IMG/VR virus record: IMGVR_UViG_3300031088_000737
Span: 96,001-160,000 of that record
Source of the DNA: a virus
Strand: one strand, 5' to 3'
DNA: 64,000 nt
In this document: positions 17,758 to 64,000 of the stretch, piece by piece
How the letters are laid out: every line of letters starts with the position of its first letter
Position numbering within the stretch: the stretch's first letter is position 1
Made by a program: the position numbers and the translations under genes
Notes under the pieces: model-generated
What the model saw: only the letters and a program-made list of their open reading frames with translations
Told to the model about the DNA's origin: nothing
Database searches by the model: none

Positions 17758-20283
17758 TTATTGTTTCTCTACATCATTACAGCTTTTACATAACTCATTG
17801 TCGCATAGATGTTCAAAGTAATTCCAACAACGATCACATTTCTTAAAATCATGCTTGAATAACTCAGTTTTATGATATTTAACAACATTCACATTCCCCA
17901 GTAATACAGACAAGACGGTTTGTTGTTCCTTGTTCAAATCCTTGTCTAAGTAAAGTACCGTCTCATTGTTTTTAGACATTACTTTATTGGTTCTACCTTC
18001 TTCAAACAATTTATTCGCTACATCTCTTAGTTCTAAGACTTGATTAAAGCTGTTTTGATCAAAATCAACTACAACGTCATCCAATAACTCTTCCATAAAT
18101 ACACTTAACCCAGAGTAGCTGTTGAGACTTCTGTAGTATTCTTCTGTTGAATAAGGAAGGTAAGTAGACAATAAGACCATTAAATTATGTTGAACATAGT
18201 TTAAAACAGATTGCGTTAATCTTCTTCTTGGTGCGTCAGGAGCTAGACAATATAATCTGTCTTTGTTCGCTTCAAAGTAAAGCACGCTCAATCTATCACA
18301 AAAAGCATACAGAACGCTTAATGCTTCATTAAACTTGTATTCATCACCTAGTTTTAAAACGGTCTTTTTAAGCTCGTTTGTTTCATTGAGCACGTATTTA
18401 TCCAACAAGTCCATGTCTTGTGTGTTTAATACACTTTCGGGTGTGTAATCATATAAGTTTTGCAACATGAACCTGTAAGTGTTTCTAAACTTCTTATACA
18501 TTTCAGTTGCTGCTTGTAATGTGCTTTCTGAATAGGTCAATTCTTTATGATAGTCTTGGTTAAGACACCATAATCTTAATACATCAGGACTATGCTGTTT
18601 CAATAAGTCTTTCAAAGCGACATAATTACCTAATGACTTAGAAAACTTCATACCTTTCGCATCCACTACAAAGCCATGTGTGAATACTTGTTTGTAAGGT
18701 GCTTTATTATTTAAAGCAGTTGATGTCAACAAGGATGATTGAAACCATCCACGGTGTTGGTCAGAACCTTCCAAGTATAAATCAGATTGTGTGGTACCGT
18801 AGTTTCTTTTCATCACAGTCGTATGTGTCATTCCACTGTCAAACCAGACATCAAGTGTTTGAGCAGAGAAGTCATCAGTATAAAGTGATGATAATCCGTT
18901 ATGTTTAACAAAGGTGACCCACGTTCTATATTCAGCAAGAGCTTCTGGGGTTTTATCTTTGGGTAATGGCACGCCCCAAAGTCTGTTCCGTGAAACACAC
19001 CAACTGTTACGAGTAGACAACATGGATGACAATCTATTTTTACCATTGCTCGGGAAGAAAGTTACATGTTCTACTTCATCAAGAGCTTTTTCTTTCACAT
19101 TAGAAAGATCCATGAACCATTCTTTTGAAGCTTTAGAGAACAATGGAGACTTATGACGCCAGCAGTGTGGGTATTCATGTTCTAATTTGGTTAAATTGAA
19201 AACCAGTTGATCGCCTTGTAATTTCTGTAATACGAATGCGGCTGAATCTTTCAAATTCATACCTTGTAGCTCTGGAAAATCAACTGAATCATATTTACCA
19301 TAGTTATCCACATAACTATTAACGTCAAGATGATGAGTTTCGCCCAAATAAAAGTCATCTAGCCCAAAGGACGGAGCCACATGAACAAAACCAGTACCTG
19401 AGTTTTCAACAAAATCTGCTTGAAGTAAAGGTACCATTTTTTTACTGTATGGACTTTGAACATCGAGATTGTCTAATTCAACATCTGTAACGTATTCCAT
19501 TTCTGAACCAAGATCGTCATTTTTCAATCTGACATAATACTTATTATGGGCTTTATTGTAATACTTTGCATAAGTAAAACGTTTATTATACGCAACAGCT
19601 TGGTTGGCTGGTAAGGTATAAGGCGTTGTTGTCCATACAAGTAGATAAGTGTTATCATCCAGTTTGAATTCAACCGTTACGCTGTCGGATGTTTTGACTT
19701 TGTATTCGACCTCAGCTTCCGCTAAGGAAGACTGACAATCTTTACACCAATGAACAGGTCTAAATTTTTGATAGAGATATTCTTTTTCTAACAAACTAAG
19801 AACAGCTTCCATTTCCTCAGCTTCACGGAAGAATTCATTTGTTTTGTAAGACTTATCAAAATCAGCTAACATACCAAACTCTTTTAACTGGGATAATTGA
19901 TTAGCGACTTGTTCATTAGAATACTGGTAACACTGATTGAGGAATTCTTGTTTGTTAGTTTTACCACTATGCAATTTTTCAACGGCTAATTCAACAGGCA
20001 ATCCATGACAGTCAAATCCATTGTTAAAAGGAGCGTAGTAGCCATTGAGGCGTTTAAATTTTAAGACAGTATCTTTCAATACCTTGTTGGTAAAATGACC
20101 CAAATGCAGGTCACCGTTCGCATAGGGAGGCCCATCATGAAGCAAGAATAAAGGCTTATGACGTTGACTTTCTAAAAAGTCTTTCATTTCTTGGCTATTC
20201 CAGCAATCCATATAGCTGGATTTATCCAAAAACTTTTCGTTAAGGTTGAAACTGACTTTTTGCATGTTGAGTGTATATTTCAT
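17758..20283 (-). CDS. ileS: Isoleucyl-tRNA synthetase (bacterial IleRS1-type)
   Basis: DGPPYANGDLHLGH (HIGH) and KFSKSLGN (KMSKS). Editing-domain motifs WTTTPYTL and GTGFVHVAP, plus EGSDQHRGWF and a C-terminal CxxC...CxxC zinc finger. Confidence 0.96.
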   Translation of the reverse strand: MKYTLNMQKVSFNLNEKFLDKSSYMDCWNSQEMKDFLESQRHKPLFLLHDGPPYANGDLHLGHFTNKVLKDTVLKFKRLNGYYAPFNNGFDCHGLPVELAVEKLHSGKTNKQEFLNQCYQYSNEQVANQLSQLKEFGMLADFDKSYKTNEFFREAEEMEAVLSLLEKEYLYQKFRPVHWCKDCQSSLAEAEVEYKVKTSDSVTVEFKLDDNTYLLVWTTTPYTLPANQAVAYNKRFTYAKYYNKAHNKYYVRLKNDDLGSEMEYVTDVELDNLDVQSPYSKKMVPLLQADFVENSGTGFVHVAPSFGLDDFYLGETHHLDVNSYVDNYGKYDSVDFPELQGMNLKDSAAFVLQKLQGDQLVFNLTKLEHEYPHCWRHKSPLFSKASKEWFMDLSNVKEKALDEVEHVTFFPSNGKNRLSSMLSTRNSWCVSRNRLWGVPLPKDKTPEALAEYRTWVTFVKHNGLSSLYTDDFSAQTLDVWFDSGMTHTTVMKRNYGTTQSDLYLEGSDQHRGWFQSSLLTSTALNNKAPYKQVFTHGFVVDAKGMKFSKSLGNYVALKDLLKQHSPDVLRLWCLNQDYHKELTYSESTLQAATEMYKKFRNTYRFMLQNLYDYTPESVLNTQDMDLLDKYVLNETNELKKTVLKLGDEYKFNEALSVLYAFCDRLSVLYFEANKDRLYCLAPDAPRRRLTQSVLNYVQHNLMVLLSTYLPYSTEEYYRSLNSYSGLSVFMEELLDDVVVDFDQNSFNQVLELRDVANKLFEEGRTNKVMSKNNETVLYLDKDLNKEQQTVLSVLLGNVNVVKYHKTELFKHDFKKCDRCWNYFEHLCDNELCKSCNDVEKQ

Positions 20284-57677: not shown

Positions 57678-58343
57678 CTATTTTAAAATGGTATCGAGTA
57701 TTTTGTATTGTTTATCAATGTTTTTTTCTTTCATGCTATTTATTATCTTGTCATAGTTTTTATATGTATCTTTTTCAAGTATTGATAAATTTAAAAAGCA
57801 ACATTTACCTTTAAGTATAACCGATATCTGTGCAATGTTTTTATCATTTTTGCATTTAGTCGAATAGAAATGATATTTATAGCCAAGATCAATTAAAGCA
57901 TTTTTACATTTCTTAGCTATATGTTTATTTTCTTCATATAACTCCATAATGCTTTTTTCGTTTTTATAGCTAAGTGTTAACATTTGTATATTGATTACAT
58001 AACCATAGCCAACCGTGTATTCAAATACAAATGGATTCTTTGGATTATAGTCGTCACCGACTTGGATTGTTTGATATTTTATGTTTTCAAGATTAATTGT
58101 TACTGTAATAGATGTTTCATTTTTACTTATGTTTACAATATGTTCCTTAACATTTTTATAATCTATTGATGAGCCAAGATTGTTTACAAACTGATTCTCA
58201 GTAATTCGGTAAAGATCGCCCTCTTCTTTTTGGAAAATATAATAGAGTTTACTTGTTTGGGGAATTACTATTGTTAGTTCCTTTTGCTTACCAACTTGCG
58301 TTCCTAATTGACTTAGAATTGGTGGAAAATCGTTGACTGACAT
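57678..58343 (-). CDS. Paralog of 56879-57667 without a signal peptide
   Basis: VTINL....QTI.V motif; ends YKILDTILK. Confidence 0.65.
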   Translation of the reverse strand: MSVNDFPPILSQLGTQVGKQKELTIVIPQTSKLYYIFQKEEGDLYRITENQFVNNLGSSIDYKNVKEHIVNISKNETSITVTINLENIKYQTIQVGDDYNPKNPFVFEYTVGYGYVINIQMLTLSYKNEKSIMELYEENKHIAKKCKNALIDLGYKYHFYSTKCKNDKNIAQISVILKGKCCFLNLSILEKDTYKNYDKIINSMKEKNIDKQYKILDTILK

Positions 58344-58457
58344 GTTATATCTCCTGAATTCCTGTAATAGTAACATTAAATAAATAATAATCAAACAAAA
58401 AATATAGATAATCTAATAGCATTATGATATAATAAGTCAAATTTAAGGACTTGTATT

Positions 58458-59723
58458 ATGATTAGAAATACTGAATTGTCGCCCAATAAAAGCAAATCGT
58501 TGAAAACGAAAGCGGATCATTATCTTGAGATCGTTGCTATTGCCACAGAGAATGGTGGTGAATGTTTGGATAATGAGTATGTGGCAAGCAATATTAAGAT
58601 GAATTTTAGATGTGTTGATAGTCATGAATGGTCAGCACGACCTAACGATATTAAACGTGGCACATGGTGTCCATCGTGTCGATCTAACAAAACAGAAAAC
58701 CTTGTTCGACAATTCTTTGAAACAGTTTTTAACCAGCCATTTAAAGTTTCTAGCCCAGAATGGCTTCAAATTGAAGGCGAACGAAAATGTATTCTAGATG
58801 GTTTGAACACTGATTTGAAGATTGCCTTTGAGTATCATGGCGAACAACACTATCATTATATCCCGCATTTTCATGACCGGGCCAATAAATCATTTGAATA
58901 CCAGCAGGAACGCGATAAGAAAGTCAGATCGCTTTGTGAATCAAATGGCATCAAACTTATTGAGATTAAGTATTTGGAAGATGGTTACTCTCGTGAAACC
59001 TTTATTTCATACCTTACTGATATCTTTAAAGCCGAATTGGATATTACAGTCACTGCTCAACAAATAACTAAATTTAAAAAATTGCCATTTGCAAGTTCAA
59101 AAATTAATGAATTAAAAGAATTGGCTAAAAAAATGAAAGGTGAATGTCTATCTGTTAAATATTTAGGAACCCATTCAAAAGCTAAATGGAAGTGTGAAAA
59201 AGGACATGAATGGGAAGCGGTACCTAAATCTATCAAAAAAGGTCATTGGTGCCCTTATTGTAATGGACGACTAAGAGAAGGCAACACTTTAGAAGAAATT
59301 TCAGCGATTGCACGTTCAAAAGGTGGTCAATGTTTATCAATCAGTGTTCAAAATTTAAAAGAGAAACTGAGTTTTATCTGTTCAAATGGACATTCTTTCG
59401 AAACATCCAGTGATGGCATCCTTTATACCAATAAATGGTGTCCATACTGTGCCAAGAATAAATTGGTTGATCCTATGGCTGATATGCACGAGCATGCCAA
59501 GCTTAAAGGTGGTAAATTTCTTTCGACTGTTTATGTTAATTCAACAGCTCCTTTAATGTTTGAATGTGGTGATGGACATACATGGAATACAACTTATTCA
59601 TCCATTCGACACAGAAAGTCTTGGTGCCCTAAATGCCATAATAAGAAAAAAGGTCAAAACTTGGCTGGCTATCTCAACAAACCTAAGATTATTGAGACGA
59701 CTATCGAAATTCAAATAAAATGA
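58458..59723 (+). CDS. Zinc-ribbon repeat PD-(D/E)xK-like endonuclease (putative homing endonuclease)
   Basis: Four C..(G/S)H.(W/F)...WCP.C units and a nuclease core LDG...KIAFEYHGEQHY...D..(K/V)...C...GI.LIEI. Confidence 0.7.
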   Translation: MIRNTELSPNKSKSLKTKADHYLEIVAIATENGGECLDNEYVASNIKMNFRCVDSHEWSARPNDIKRGTWCPSCRSNKTENLVRQFFETVFNQPFKVSSPEWLQIEGERKCILDGLNTDLKIAFEYHGEQHYHYIPHFHDRANKSFEYQQERDKKVRSLCESNGIKLIEIKYLEDGYSRETFISYLTDIFKAELDITVTAQQITKFKKLPFASSKINELKELAKKMKGECLSVKYLGTHSKAKWKCEKGHEWEAVPKSIKKGHWCPYCNGRLREGNTLEEISAIARSKGGQCLSISVQNLKEKLSFICSNGHSFETSSDGILYTNKWCPYCAKNKLVDPMADMHEHAKLKGGKFLSTVYVNSTAPLMFECGDGHTWNTTYSSIRHRKSWCPKCHNKKKGQNLAGYLNKPKIIETTIEIQIK

Positions 59724-59733
59724 TCTTATTTCA

Positions 59734-59762
59734 TTGACTTTTTTTGAAAATAGGTTTATAAT
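59734..59762 (+). promoter_or_regulatory. Sigma70 promoter TTGACT-N17-TATAAT
   Basis: Read directly; drives the short leader ORF at 59791. Confidence 0.8.
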
Positions 59763-59790
59763 TGAAAAATATTAAATAGGAATTTATTTT

Positions 59791-59832
59791 ATGAACATTC
59801 AATTAACTATAAGAGCCAGAGCGATATCTTAG
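59791..59832 (+). CDS. Candidate leader peptide MNIQLTIRARAIS
   Basis: SD AGGA; codons ATA AGA GCC AGA GCG ATA; followed by overlapping hairpins and a terminator. Confidence 0.5.
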   Translation: MNIQLTIRARAIS

Positions 59833-59891
59833 TGAGCTAATCTCATTGAGAGGGGTTAGCACACGCTAAACCCTCTGGCAAACGAATGTGG

Positions 59892-59925
59892 AGCCTTTGA
59901 GGGTAATAACTCAAAGGCTTTTTTT
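59892..59925 (+). terminator. Intrinsic terminator after the leader
   Basis: AGCCTTTGAG-GGTAATAA-CTCAAAGGCT followed by a T-run. Confidence 0.85.
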
Positions 59926-60016
59926 ATGCCTGTTTGAGAAGGGTAGACTATTACCCTAATGAATGTATATCATTGATTTTAAAGGAAAAATATTTTAAAA
60001 TAAATTAAAATAGTTG

Positions 60017-60045
60017 TTGACAAAGGTGAAAAGAGTTGGTAAGAT
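60017..60045 (+). promoter_or_regulatory. tRNA-operon promoter TTGACA-N17-TAAGAT
   Basis: Located about 57 nt upstream of the first tRNA. Confidence 0.7.
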
Positions 60046-60101
60046 GTTAAACATGAAGAGTTGAGAAGCAAAAAGAAAAACGCTTCATAAAGAATAAATA
60101 T

Positions 60102-60179
60102 GGGGGCACATGTTCCAAGGGATGGCGAGTTTGCCTTGCACGCAGACTGCGAAGAGTTCGATTCTCTTTGTCTCCACCA
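60102..60179 (+). tRNA. tRNA-Ala(TGC)
   Basis: G3:U70, loop CT-TGC-AC, TTCGA T-loop and encoded CCA. Confidence 0.85.
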
Positions 60180-60220
60180 AATTTGTTGACTTGATGTGTT
60201 ATAGAACAAACTTAAAATAT

Positions 60221-60295
60221 GGGCTGTTAGTTTAACTGGGAAAATACCTGCCTTGCACGCAGATGTTCAGAGTTCGATTCTCTGACGGTCCACCA
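60221..60295 (+). tRNA. tRNA-Ala(TGC)
   Basis: GGGCTGT/ACGGTCC acceptor with G3:U70; CCA. Confidence 0.88.
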
Positions 60296-60319
60296 GATTA
60301 GTTGTAGAAAGAGAATTAT

Positions 60320-60396
60320 GTCTGCGTAGCTCAGTTGGATAGAGCATCCGCCTTCTAAGCGGATGGTCGTTGGTTCGAATCCAACCGTAGACACCA
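60320..60396 (+). tRNA. tRNA-Arg(TCT)
   Basis: TCCGC-CTTCTAA-GCGGA anticodon arm; CCA. Confidence 0.92.
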
Positions 60397-60416
60397 AATT
60401 AGATGTAACCAGATAT

Positions 60417-60491
60417 GGGCTGATAGTTTAACTGGGAAAACACTTGCCTTGCACGCAGGAGTTCAGAGTTCGATTCTCTGTCGGTCCACCA
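60417..60491 (+). tRNA. tRNA-Ala(TGC)
   Basis: Near copy of 60221-60295; G3:U70; CCA. Confidence 0.88.
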
Positions 60492-60508
60492 GATTTAAGT
60501 AATACAAT

Positions 60509-60583
60509 GGGGCTTTTAGTTTAACTGGCAAAACCTTGGGATTTCTCCTAAAGAATATGGTTCGAGTCCATATAGCTCCACCA
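60509..60583 (+). ncRNA. tRNA-Ala-like RNA with aberrant 6-nt anticodon loop
   Basis: GGGGCT/AGCTCC-ACCA acceptor (G3:U70), normal D and T arms; the arm reads TTGGG-ATTTCT-CCTAA. Confidence 0.7.
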
Positions 60584-60598
60584 GTTTATAAGTTTCAT

Positions 60599-60675
60599 GG
60601 GCCATTAGTTCAGTTGGTAGAACGCCTGCTTTGCACGCAGGATGTCATGAGTTCAAATCTCATATGTGTCCACCA
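60599..60675 (+). tRNA. tRNA-Ala(TGC) with one bulged base in the acceptor stem
   Basis: CCTGC-TTTGCAC-GCAGG; the 3' acceptor strand ATGTGTCC is 8 nt long. Confidence 0.8.
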
Positions 60676-60692
60676 GTTTTAAAATTTTATAC

Positions 60693-60766
60693 GGGGTTTT
60701 AGTTTAACTATCGAAAAACAACAAGGAAACTTGTAAATGAAAGGTCGAAACTTTCAGACTCCACCA
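60693..60766 (+). ncRNA. tRNA-Ala-like RNA with GAAA tetraloop in place of the anticodon loop
   Basis: GGGGTTT/AGACTCC-ACCA (G3:U70) and ACAAG-GAAA-CTTGT. The D-loop lacks GG and the T-loop is GTCGAAA. Confidence 0.72.
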
Positions 60767-60781
60767 AATAATGTTTTTTAT

Positions 60782-60857
60782 ATTCTCATAGCTCAACTGG
60801 AAGAGCAATGACCTTCTAAGTCATCGGTTGTAGGTTCGAGTCCTACTGGGAATGCCA
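60782..60857 (+). tRNA. tRNA-Arg(TCT)
   Basis: ATGAC-CTTCTAA-GTCAT; ends GCCA. Confidence 0.9.
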
Positions 60858-60863
60858 AATTAG

Positions 60864-61040
60864 TTAGTTGATGTTTCAACTGATTTAAACGCTACATGTT
60901 GCCTGATTAGCAACTAGTATACTGGTCAAGTATGATTGAAGCAGCTTAATCACTGCAGTCTGACCTCTGATAAGTATATCCGGTAGGTATTTACCGTCAC
61001 TTCGAAGCGTGGAGATATTTATTATCGTTGAAGCGTTAGC
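60864..61040 (+). ncRNA. Unassigned multi-stem structured RNA candidate within the tRNA operon
   Basis: Several nested inverted repeats, closed by AACGCT/AGCGTT; no credible ORF. Confidence 0.45.
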
Positions 61041-61054
61041 GGAAATACTATTAT

Positions 61055-61129
61055 GGGCTGTTAGTTTAGCTGGGAAAATACCTGCCTTGCACGCAGGAGT
61101 GCTGGGTTCGAGTCCCTGACGGTCCACCA
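61055..61129 (+). tRNA. tRNA-Ala(TGC)
   Basis: G3:U70; CCTGC-CTTGCAC-GCAGG; one T-stem mismatch; CCA. Confidence 0.85.
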
Positions 61130-61141
61130 GTTTTGTTGTTT

Positions 61142-61218
61142 GTCCGTGTAGCTCAGTTGGATAGAGCGTCTGCCTCCTAAGCGGAAGGTCGTAGGTTCAA
61201 ATCCTATCACGGACGCCA
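61142..61218 (+). tRNA. tRNA-Arg(CCT)
   Basis: TCTGC-CTCCTAA-GCGGA; ends GCCA. Confidence 0.9.
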
Positions 61219-61248
61219 GTTTTGATATTTTATTTAGAGGATTAATCA

Positions 61249-61782
61249 ATGGTAATTGCTTATGTGGCACCTTTGTTAAAAGATGATTATATTAACGCAA
61301 CCGCTGATAATAAAACTATTAAAGAAAGTCATGATATTCGTGAAAAAATTGTAGCTCGCTCTCTTTATGTATTTGATAAAATTGCTGAGTTGTTGAATTT
61401 AAAATATAATTGGGTTGCTTTTGATACTATTGATTTAGAAAAATATCAAGGTGCCGATAACGGAGAATATGATTATCAGCGTTATTTTGAAACGTTTAAA
61501 TTTTATAGTGATATTGACGAATTAGAATATAAAAATAAAATTATTGATGTTTATTGTAATCAATTTCCATCAAGTTTTATTTATGAAGAATTTGAAGATG
61601 AAGTTCTTGGAACGGCTGAATCAATTAAGCTAGGTATTGATTTAAAAAAAGAAAGAGCAGATAGAAAACGAAAACATGATAAGGATAAAGAAAAAGAACG
61701 CAATAAGATTAGACCAGAAGTAATAGCTTCTATTAAATCTAAATTGAGTGAATTAGAATTATCTTTTGTTGATTTTAAATGA
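61249..61782 (+). CDS. Hypothetical protein embedded in the tRNA cluster
   Basis: SD GAGG; acidic body with a basic coiled tail. Confidence 0.7.
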   Translation: MVIAYVAPLLKDDYINATADNKTIKESHDIREKIVARSLYVFDKIAELLNLKYNWVAFDTIDLEKYQGADNGEYDYQRYFETFKFYSDIDELEYKNKIIDVYCNQFPSSFIYEEFEDEVLGTAESIKLGIDLKKERADRKRKHDKDKEKERNKIRPEVIASIKSKLSELELSFVDFK

Positions 61783-61863
61783 TTTAACAAAGAATAAGGG
61801 AGTTTTACTGTAAAGGTGAAACTGGATTGGAGCCGTGGTTTCCGGGGGGCATTCATTCACTAT

Positions 61864-61940
61864 GGGATTTTAGCTCAGTTGGTTAGAGCATCCGACTCAT
61901 AATCGGCAGGTCGTAAGTTCAAGTCTTACAAGTCCCACCA
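61864..61940 (+). tRNA. tRNA with CAT anticodon, probably Ile2 (lysidine)
   Basis: CCGA-CTCATAA-TCGG arm with C29:G41, resembling ileX-type tRNAs. Met is not excluded. Confidence 0.8.
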
Positions 61941-61956
61941 AATTAGATGTGTATAT

Positions 61957-62031
61957 GGTTCTGTAGCATAACGGTAAATGCACCCCGCTCATAACGGGAT
62001 GATTAAGGTTCGATTCCTTGCAGAACCACCA
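61957..62031 (+). tRNA. tRNA with CAT anticodon (elongator Met or Ile2)
   Basis: CCCG-CTCATAA-CGGG; G1:C72 is paired, so it is not initiator-like; CCA. Confidence 0.8.
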
Positions 62032-62034
62032 GAT

Positions 62035-62163
62035 AGTAGAAAGGTAGCTTAACGGGAGAGCAGCCGGGATGACCCGGTAACTTTAAATCTCATGTCAGAT
62101 AAATTCTCGTAATTTATAGGCCATGTGGATAGTGGTAATGGTTCGAATCCATTGCTTTCTACT
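62035..62163 (+). ncRNA. tRNA-like RNA with no anticodon loop and a 58-nt variable arm
   Basis: AGTAGAAAG/CTTTCTACT closing stem, D arm GCTT..GAGC, GCCGGG-ATGA-CCCGGT and T arm AATGG-TTCGAAT-CCATT. No encoded CCA. Confidence 0.62.
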
Positions 62164-62171
62164 TGCATTTT

Positions 62172-62247
62172 GGGGTTGTAGTTCAGTTGGTAGAACGCTT
62201 GTATGGCATACAAGAGGTCGTGGGTTCGAATCCCATCTTCTCCACCA
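62172..62247 (+). tRNA. tRNA-Ala(GGC) with two acceptor-stem mismatches
   Basis: CTTGT-ATGGCAT-ACAAG; G3:U70; U5/U68 and U6/U67 are unpaired; CCA. Confidence 0.78.
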
Positions 62248-62252
62248 AATAT

Positions 62253-62280
62253 AAAGAGAACTTTCGAGTTCTCTTTTTTA
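62253..62280 (+). terminator. Terminator ending the tRNA operon
   Basis: AAGAGAAC-TTTCGA-GTTCTCTT followed by a T-run. Confidence 0.8.
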
Positions 62281-62338
62281 TTGCTTGATTTTTGAATTTA
62301 TGTTATAATCAATCATTATTTTATTATGAGGAATTATT

Positions 62339-63169
62339 GTGATTAAAAGTTCATTAAAAGATATCAATAAATCATTAAAAACACATTACAAAAGCCCTTT
62401 TAAAGTATCTAATTATAAAGAAGAACTTGAAGGAGAAATAGTCGATTTTGTTGTTATTGAAGATATTAATAAGCGAACACTCGCTCGCTTTCAATACCTA
62501 AAAGAAGATGGTGCTATTATCTCTGGTTACAATGACTCTCCATTATATAAATCAGAACGCGAACAATATTTTCCAGCATATTATGATCAACAACACTTGG
62601 ATATCTATCAAAAAGTATTCGATTTGTTTTATGATAATCCTATTGTAAAAGAATATGTTCAAAAATATTCGCTTGGCACCGTTAATAAAAATATGTTTGA
62701 TATTAGCGATGATCATAGACGTGGCGTCTCATTAATCAAATGTTTCTATTTTTTAGGCAACAGCAGTCGTTCTGATAGTTCTATTGGGCTTCAATATTAT
62801 ATCAATGAACATGGTAAAATCACACCACGAATGAAAATTAAGTTTTCATTCATGACCTGTGGCAGTCTTACTATCTATTATGATTACTCATCTAATAGCT
62901 TTCATTTTGGCAAAGCCAGTTTTAATGAATCCAATAAACTTGTTAAACTTGATGATGAAAAGACGACTGAATTATTTAATATTAAGTCTGGTGAGGTATT
63001 CATTGATGATGAGCATTTAAATCTAATCTTCACTCGTTGGATGTTGGAAATGGGATATCGGTTAAACAAACAAGCTTTTGTCGCTTACAAGATGGATGAA
63101 TTCATTGAACTTGCTGACACAGCAAAAGTGATTGAACATCTAAGTTTGATAAAAATGGCACTTATTTAA
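62339..63169 (+). CDS. Hypothetical protein, family D, M-x-x-I tail
   Basis: GTG start with SD GAGGA; ends EHLSLIKMALI. Confidence 0.7.
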   Translation: MIKSSLKDINKSLKTHYKSPFKVSNYKEELEGEIVDFVVIEDINKRTLARFQYLKEDGAIISGYNDSPLYKSEREQYFPAYYDQQHLDIYQKVFDLFYDNPIVKEYVQKYSLGTVNKNMFDISDDHRRGVSLIKCFYFLGNSSRSDSSIGLQYYINEHGKITPRMKIKFSFMTCGSLTIYYDYSSNSFHFGKASFNESNKLVKLDDEKTTELFNIKSGEVFIDDEHLNLIFTRWMLEMGYRLNKQAFVAYKMDEFIELADTAKVIEHLSLIKMALI

Positions 63170-63195
63170 GATTATTACAATATAAGGATAACAAC

Positions 63196-64000
63196 ATGAT
63201 TCGCAATTCATTAAAAACTATTAAGAAAACAATTAGAAAAAAATATCCAAAACCTTTTGATGTATCAACGTTCATAAAAACTAAACCAGAAGTCGCTGGC
63301 ACCTATATTGTTATTAAAGATTTCAATAAAGAAGCTATTGCGGAGTTTAAATATAATCAAGAAGATGGTGCTATTCTGATAGGTTATGACAATTCTCCTA
63401 AATATCGAGAGTATTATGAAAAGAATTTTCCAGAATTACATATCAAAGAACACCTTAATTACTATCAGGAAGTGTTTGATAAACTTCATGAGAACTCCAT
63501 TTTTAAAGAACTTTTTGAAGTTGATTTGGAGCCTCTAAAAGTAACTGAAGATATGTTTTCACTCAATAAAGAATGCATTAAACGTTTGCATGTTAACAAA
63601 ACATTTAAAAACCTAGTACCGGCTGGACTACATATTTCTATTTGCTTTCAATATTACGTTAATGATAACTTTATGTTAAAACCTCGAATGAAATTTAATT
63701 TTGAGTTTGATGATTTTGGGAGCTTGATTCTTTATTATGACTATGATACGAAATGTCTTCATTTCGGTGAAATTCAATTTGTAGACAGTGAAACATTTAA
63801 AGATTTGAATACTAATAATGTTACTTTTATCAATAACTTACCTTTTTACATCACTAAAAGACACTTACAGATGTTAGGCTTAGATACAAAAAAAACAGAT
63901 ATTGAATTTTATGCTTTGAATAATGATGAAAGTTATTCTTTAATGAGTATTAACCAACAAGATCCAATTAAGACTTTTTCGAAGTTGAAAAGCATCTTTG
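63196..64000 (+). CDS. Family D paralog, 3'-truncated by the window (not in the ORF track)
   Basis: SD AAGGA; open to the window end. Shares EDGAI..GY..SP.Y and QYY.N......PRMK..F.F...GSL..YYDY with 62339-63169. Confidence 0.75.
   Translation, partial: MIRNSLKTIKKTIRKKYPKPFDVSTFIKTKPEVAGTYIVIKDFNKEAIAEFKYNQEDGAILIGYDNSPKYREYYEKNFPELHIKEHLNYYQEVFDKLHENSIFKELFEVDLEPLKVTEDMFSLNKECIKRLHVNKTFKNLVPAGLHISICFQYYVNDNFMLKPRMKFNFEFDDFGSLILYYDYDTKCLHFGEIQFVDSETFKDLNTNNVTFINNLPFYITKRHLQMLGLDTKKTDIEFYALNNDESYSLMSINQQDPIKTFSKLKSIF

Follow-up and report, generated by a model that had tools for sequence, protein, structure and literature searches.

Leader-peptide attenuators that respond to more than one amino acid are represented by ilvL of the ilvGMEDA operon (Ile/Leu/Val) and thrL (Thr/Ile), and trpL, hisL, leuL and pheL are further well-known leaders. 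The trpL leader has two Trp codons. In the pheST attenuator (pheM leader), phenylalanyl-tRNA synthetase is controlled by leader-peptide attenuation. T-box riboswitches bind uncharged tRNA directly via a specifier codon and the T-box motif, without translation. The genes for tRNAs themselves are usually thought to be under global growth-rate and stringent control.

Here, we have analyzed a short leader upstream of a tRNA gene array in a 64,000-nucleotide stretch of DNA (hereafter the window), which comprises bases 96001-160000 of IMGVR_UViG_3300031088_000737, a 181-kb record with 32% G+C. On the basis of current results, the leader is likely to be a ribosome-mediated (leader-peptide) transcription attenuator with the tRNA gene array as its output, and this output would probably be raised when the sensed tRNAs run short. 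The locus resembles the attenuators of enterobacterial amino-acid operons in having a promoter-proximal ORF with a ribosome-binding site, a run of codons for several amino acids, an intrinsic terminator, and also an antiterminator for which a dependence on ribosome position is here predicted; with two codons for each sensed tRNA, it is also comparable to trpL. It differs from them in several respects. The regulated genes would be tRNA genes rather than genes for biosynthetic enzymes, so that the loop closes on tRNA supply; the choice of codons discriminates isoacceptors (AGA or CGN, AUA or AUU/C); five alternative helices are present, with the stop codon lying within the first hairpin; and a second promoter is found between the terminator and the regulated genes. 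With pheM-pheST it shares leader-peptide attenuation aimed at a component of translation, whereas the target there is a synthetase protein and one amino acid is sensed, instead of a tRNA gene array being served. Like T-box riboswitches, it appears to use transcription attenuation to read the state of specific tRNAs, but it does so with a Shine-Dalgarno-led ORF containing several codons. No match to the T-box family (RF00230) or to the Rfam Leu, His, Thr, Trp and Phe leader families was detected in the region 58000-64000 at E <= 1. The literature searched, outside which much subscription literature lies, contains no report of tRNA genes controlled by leader-peptide attenuation, and specific feedback in which the rate of decoding their own codons controls tRNA genes of bacteria or phages is apparently undescribed there as well. 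The new feature, supported by the analysis below, would be an attenuator of the classical type that acts on tRNA genes and distinguishes isoacceptors.

The leader, its promoters and the tRNA array

The DNA elements of the locus are listed below in window coordinates.

59734-59762, + strand: promoter P1, TTGACT-17-TATAAT, 11/12 consensus matches
59778-59781, + strand: Shine-Dalgarno AGGA, 9 nt 5' of the ATG, read from the sequence
59791-59832, + strand: leader ORF of 13 codons, MNIQLTIRARAIS followed by a stop codon
59809-59826, + strand: codon run ATA AGA GCC AGA GCG ATA
59890-59901 with 59910-59921, + strand: intrinsic terminator, 12 pairs, with a run of seven T at 59919-59925
59926-60016, + strand: spacer common to all nine array kinds, with an A/T-rich stretch before P2
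59940-59945 and 59952-59957, + strand: inverted repeat in the spacer, AGGGTA and TACCCT
60017-60045, + strand: array promoter P2, TTGACA-17-TAAGAT, with TG extension
60104-62247, + strand: tRNA array with Ala(TGC) x5, Ala(GGC), Arg(TCT) x2, Arg(CCT) and CAT x2
60509-60583 and 60693-60766: tRNA-like genes without a normal anticodon loop
61249-61782, + strand: 177-aa ORF inside the array
61864-61940: CAT tRNA with 83% identity to an E. coli gene that has a CAT anticodon and is annotated as tRNA-Ile in RefSeq
61957-62031: second CAT tRNA, Met or Ile2
62253-62276, + strand: terminator-like hairpin closing the array

The promoter, Shine-Dalgarno sequence, 13-amino acid ORF and order of codons in the run had been pointed out in the original prediction, and all of them could be located in the window. 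P1 was the top sigma-70-like site in the 5.5 kb scanned, and most of the related leaders described below are preceded by an equivalent promoter. A GGA, GAG or AGG motif was found upstream of all related leader ORFs. P1, the leader, the terminator, P2 and the array are contiguous and co-directional, with P2 placed between terminator and array. The gene upstream of the window leader codes for a 421-aa zinc-ribbon protein; it had only distant homologues, all of them at loci without tRNAs, and these were useless for analysis of synteny for that reason.

The codon content of the leader is unusual for this record. Ala, AGR and ATA codons together account for 7.9% of the 43,730 codons in its 131 long ORFs, and only a single run of at least six such codons, that of the leader, was observed in the six frames of the 181 kb. 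Within their amino acids these codons are also not the common ones: GCC and GCG, both of which occur in the leader, are the least used Ala codons of the record, and only one in four of its Ile codons is ATA. The readers of the run are present in the array, namely Ile2-like CAU, Arg UCU, Ala GGC and Ala UGC tRNAs, as had been predicted. Because of its similarity to the E. coli gene annotated as tRNA-Ile, the CAT tRNA at 61864-61940 is probably Ile2, reading AUA; therefore, the array should contain a reader for each of the six consecutive codons of the run. Divergence among the five tRNA-Ala(TGC) genes is strong (56-92% identity to each other), and CCA is encoded in all of them. The 177-aa ORF, which had neither a Pfam match nor a useful one in the Atlas, shows 54-76% identity to ORFs located within the same array in relatives.

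The original prediction carried the caveat that the array has a promoter of its own. This is indeed the case: P2 lies ~90 nt 3' of the leader terminator, is strong and conserved at every array, and is identical in 30 of 32 bases to the P2 of a Leu array in the same record (see below). Conservation of the spacer was seen also in L012, L014 and L018-L041, and the arms of its inverted repeat co-vary in other arrays (AGGTC/GACCT, AGGTT/AACCT). This repeat could serve as a regulator site; alternatively, read-through transcripts may contain it as an RNA hairpin. At its start, the P2 transcript (ATGAAGAGT...) can pair with the stretch just 5' of the first tRNA (60053-60100), and a pairing at this place is retained at the Leu array, L012 and L014 despite their different sequences; it may form a 5' processing or stabilising hairpin.

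Related cassettes and codon-anticodon matching

A second cassette of the same design was identified in the record.

G000 contig C1 77614-79930 (L011 1115-3431), - strand: Leu cassette with promoter, Shine-Dalgarno, leader, hairpins, terminator and P2

Its leader, MFTTIRLSLLLLSSLLLSLG, uses all six Leu codons, and its array contains about twelve tRNA-Leu genes with five anticodons, a tRNA-Gln gene and an odd tRNA-like gene.

The first related Ala/Arg/CAT arrays were reached via homologues of the 177-aa ORF. Their leaders include MNIQSIIRARAIS (L014), MKDVKPFIIARARIS (L012) and MNTLNHNIIARARIS (another relative). In four related Ala/Arg/CAU arrays, the ATA/AGA/GCN run and a hairpin containing the stop codon have been kept, whereas the N-terminus of the peptide and the upstream gene differ. 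The upstream gene of L014 has a separate terminator 5' of P1, which indicates that the leader terminator is not part of the upstream gene. One of the related Ala/Arg arrays (L037; - strand, downstream of a match at 880-924) includes a tRNA with anticodon TTA, reported by ARAGORN as a stop-codon reader, and the leader of L037 ends in TAG.

A search for the P2 motif returned 25 loci, on contigs of up to 678 kb, and tRNA arrays were present at 21 of them. Four loci with the P2 pattern (L019, L020, L022 and L042) lacked an array or a cassette, being off-target or truncated, and were set aside. Nine kinds of array could be distinguished: Ser/Tyr, Ser/His, Gln/Pro/Trp, Ile/Asp/Val/Met, Gly/Cys, Asn/Thr/Met, Glu/Arg(ACG), Leu and Ala/Arg/CAT. 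Upstream sequence was sufficient at 19 loci of the P2 search (one of which has no downstream sequence) and at four other loci; in L027 the leader ORF is present and the locus ends upstream of it. Every locus with enough upstream sequence was found to have a Shine-Dalgarno-led short ORF with the matching residues enriched towards its C-terminus, as well as a T-run ~98 nt 5' of P2. Examples of such leaders are ..SYYYSYYSH, ..SSSSSSHSSH.. and ..REREER.., together with ..QQPQPQPQQWGWQP.., ..VVIVMDIMDIIDI.., ..GGCGCGCG.. and ..NTTNNTNNNT. Conservation upstream of tRNA clusters in relatives had been proposed as a check of the original prediction, and codon-matched leaders are present at all nine array kinds. 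Exact-pattern searches of viral or genome contigs gave no hit for hairpin 2, the P2 core or the motif of the stop-codon hairpin.

The match between leaders and arrays was then quantified using one representative per array kind, with the last 10 leader codons scored for whether they could be read by the anticodons of an array. The mean fraction of readable codons was 0.67 for a leader's own array and 0.08 for other arrays, and the true pairing of leaders and arrays was the single best of 362,880 permutations. This correspondence extends to the choice among synonymous codons. Arg is encoded by AGA before arrays with Arg(TCT) and by CGA or CGT before the Arg(ACG) array; similarly, Ile is encoded by ATA before the CAT-bearing Ala/Arg arrays and by ATT or ATC before arrays with Ile(GAT). 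Since the match is at the level of codons, it points to leaders that sense particular tRNAs rather than amino acids, as far as this can be read from codons and anticodons.

Mutually exclusive helices in the leader RNA

The leader RNA folds more stably than expected (z = -4.97 against shuffled sequences), and none of 200 shuffles was equally stable. Six segments of the window leader form five successive, mutually exclusive helices, namely HP1, HPx, HP2, the antiterminator and the terminator. The pairings considered here, in window coordinates, are as follows.

59815-59821 with 59873-59879, + strand: closing helix (anti-antiterminator), GCCAGAG with CUCUGGC, -13.8 kcal/mol
59795-59800 with 59884-59889, + strand: second closing helix
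59827-59836 with 59842-59851, + strand: HP1, containing the stop codon and the sense codon before it
59836-59844 with 59852-59860, + strand: HPx, exclusive with both HP1 and HP2
59849-59860 with 59865-59876, + strand: HP2, sequestering the antiterminator strand
59870-59879 with 59893-59904, + strand: antiterminator, ACCCUC-U-GGC with GCC-UUU-GAGGGU, covering 9/12 nt of the terminator 5' arm

In HP2, AGAGGGGUUAGC pairs with GCUAAACCCUCU (-16.9 kcal/mol), and the antiterminator pairing (ACCCUC..GGC with GCC..GAGGGU) amounts to -15.6 kcal/mol. Competing pairings of these segments, including the one that involves GCCAGAG, and a strong terminator had been proposed before, and the calculated energies as well as the 12-pair stem with its seven T agree with that proposal.

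The five mutually exclusive helices were conserved in all five Ala/Arg leaders examined (window, L012, L014, L021 and L037), only four of which are distinct, too few for covariation statistics. HP1 was present in each of the five, with an altered sequence in L037, and HPx ranged from -10.8 to -12.2 kcal/mol across the same set. In L012 and L021 the antiterminator has been retained despite changes on both strands (UCCCUAA..GCU with AGC..UUGGGGA). The closing helix is more variable: it reaches -13.8 kcal/mol in the window and L014 and only -4.9 to -7.5 kcal/mol in L012, L021 and L037.

We modeled the effect of ribosome position by masked folding, in which the transcript is cut just 5' of the terminator 3' arm and only the RNA downstream of the ribosome is allowed to fold. 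In the window leader, the predicted occupancy of the antiterminator was 0.02-0.05 with the ribosome absent or with codons 1-4 in the A site, 0.50-0.58 with codons 5-13 in the A site (the whole run included), and 0.13 with the ribosome at the stop codon. The profile of L014 had the same shape. In 150 dinucleotide shuffles of the spacer per leader, the observed contrast was never reached for the window and was reached once for L014, and about a dozen leaders of other array kinds showed the same drop near the stop codon. No simple switch could be derived in the original prediction; the chain of five helices provides a candidate that behaves like an attenuator in masked folding of the window and L014 leaders. 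For L012, L021 and L037 no switch was obtained, in that the equilibrium folding model predicted the antiterminator at every ribosome position. It should be noted that a ribosome paused at the first two codons of the run makes no physical contact with HP1, and the predicted effect of such a pause depends on the long-range closing helix, a strong pairing in the window and L014 only.

When the full terminator was included, equilibrium folding favored termination at all ribosome positions, and any switch must therefore be kinetic. Since attenuation is a kinetic process, such folding was rejected as a test. An earlier measure of occupancy was also replaced, because it was confounded by a small hairpin within the terminator arm.

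Proposed attenuation mechanism and alternative readings

From these elements we infer translation of the ORF, pausing on the run, read-through and a physiological benefit, which could be combined in the following way. P1 would give rise to a short transcript, whose 13-codon ORF is translated by a ribosome. If the tRNAs for AUA, AGA, GCC and GCG are plentiful, the ribosome would proceed to the stop codon and cover HP1 and the start of HPx; HP2 would then lock the antiterminator strand, the terminator would form, and an RNA of ~155 nt would end at ~59925. If no ribosome is loaded, HP1, HP2 and the closing helix between the run and 59873-59879 would all form, again resulting in termination. On the other hand, scarcity of the Ile2-like CAU, Arg UCU, Ala GGC or Ala UGC tRNA would cause the ribosome to pause on the run, with loss of both HP1 and the closing helix. 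HPx would replace HP2, and the freed segment 59870-59879 would pair with the 5' arm of the terminator, allowing the polymerase to pass P2 into the array. Such read-through would supplement basal transcription from P2 and, with P2 situated 3' of the terminator and 5' of the first tRNA, can only add to array output. An attenuator sensing a shortage of these tRNAs was the reading originally proposed, and it has gained support from the Leu leader, the four relatives, the codon match across nine array kinds and masked folding. Cleavage of tRNAs by toxins, which had been considered as a further trigger, is speculation.

Several other explanations have to be weighed against attenuation of the array. 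One of them, which we regard as unlikely, accepts that the leader senses decoding and supposes that its output is something other than extra transcription of the array, such as an sRNA, occlusion or modulation of P2 via the spacer, or some other target. A strong P2 at every array, a spacer that is conserved across array kinds and holds an inverted repeat, and a highly structured leader RNA would all be understandable if this were so. However, P1, the terminator, P2 and the array point in the same direction with nothing intervening, and read-through transcripts from P1 thus necessarily include the tRNAs. Furthermore, no trans target is known, and an antiterminator that overlaps a terminator is the design of attenuation in cis.

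It is even less probable that the leader is an independent small gene, coding for a 13-aa peptide or an sRNA, which adjoins the array by chance and whose terminator insulates it. The conservation of the codon run and not of the peptide N-terminus speaks against such a gene, and no function of a peptide or sRNA would predict that the leaders of nine array kinds follow the content of their arrays in composition, down to the level of codons; a standalone sRNA, allowed for in the original prediction, leaves the codon matching unexplained. This is despite the fact that the leader has both a promoter and a terminator, forming a complete transcription unit, and that the array has a promoter of its own. 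Contigs of relatives from RNA libraries (metatranscriptomes) span 59713-59955, which shows the presence of the region only and not transcription, transcript ends or levels. Two of these contigs, which cover the unit, stop 20-30 nt past the T-run and give weak support to an independent gene, and one bridges to 60068.

Finally, a chance ORF beside the ordinary terminator of the upstream gene is contradicted by the data. AT-rich DNA is indeed rich in short ORFs and the terminator lies 200 nt past the stop of that gene, but no other run of at least six such codons occurs in any of the six frames of the 181 kb, and this one is conserved despite differing upstream genes (that of L014 being separately terminated) and belongs to a leader-array pairing that ranked first in the permutation test (1/362,880).

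If attenuation of the arrays holds, it would be seen from these cassettes, about nine in number and with codon runs that can be exchanged, that classical attenuation is able to serve the supply of tRNAs and to discriminate isoacceptors. The family would provide natural, modular "tRNA sensors", and it would help explain the large, isotype-sorted tRNA arrays on huge mobile elements. In laboratory E. coli, the tRNAs for AGA and AUA are easily turned limiting or abundant.

A broader reading, which we offer tentatively and consider doubtful at present, is that each array is independently inducible and that its leader gauges pools of particular isoacceptors rather than of amino acids, codon by codon, together forming a homeostat of tRNA supply against loss of specific tRNAs. 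Such loss could be due to host anticodon nucleases or to phage-induced tRNA turnover. The leaders of a giant phage-like element would then act along with its enzymes for tRNA repair, its divergent tRNA copies and its tRNA-like genes. Two further genes of the window are relevant in this respect and also speak for the attenuator reading above.

40-2259: Rnl1-type RNA ligase fused to a calcineurin-like phosphoesterase
17758-20283: class I aminoacyl-tRNA synthetase

The presence of the RNA ligase-phosphoesterase and the synthetase suggests an element invested in the supply and repair of tRNAs. A ClpB-like ATPase is also encoded in the window. With regard to the nature of the element, the 181-kb record is classed as a provirus in IMG/VR. 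Family searches gave no match for capsid (PF05065) or terminase (PF03237) in the record, and no close relatives were found among phage GenBank records. A 1.86-Mb contig carries a protein identical to one product of the record, and relatives are located on contigs of 0.44-1.04 Mb. The stretch of the window is also contained in isolate-sized DNA runs from several studies. The tRNA repair and charging genes of the window stand near arrays.
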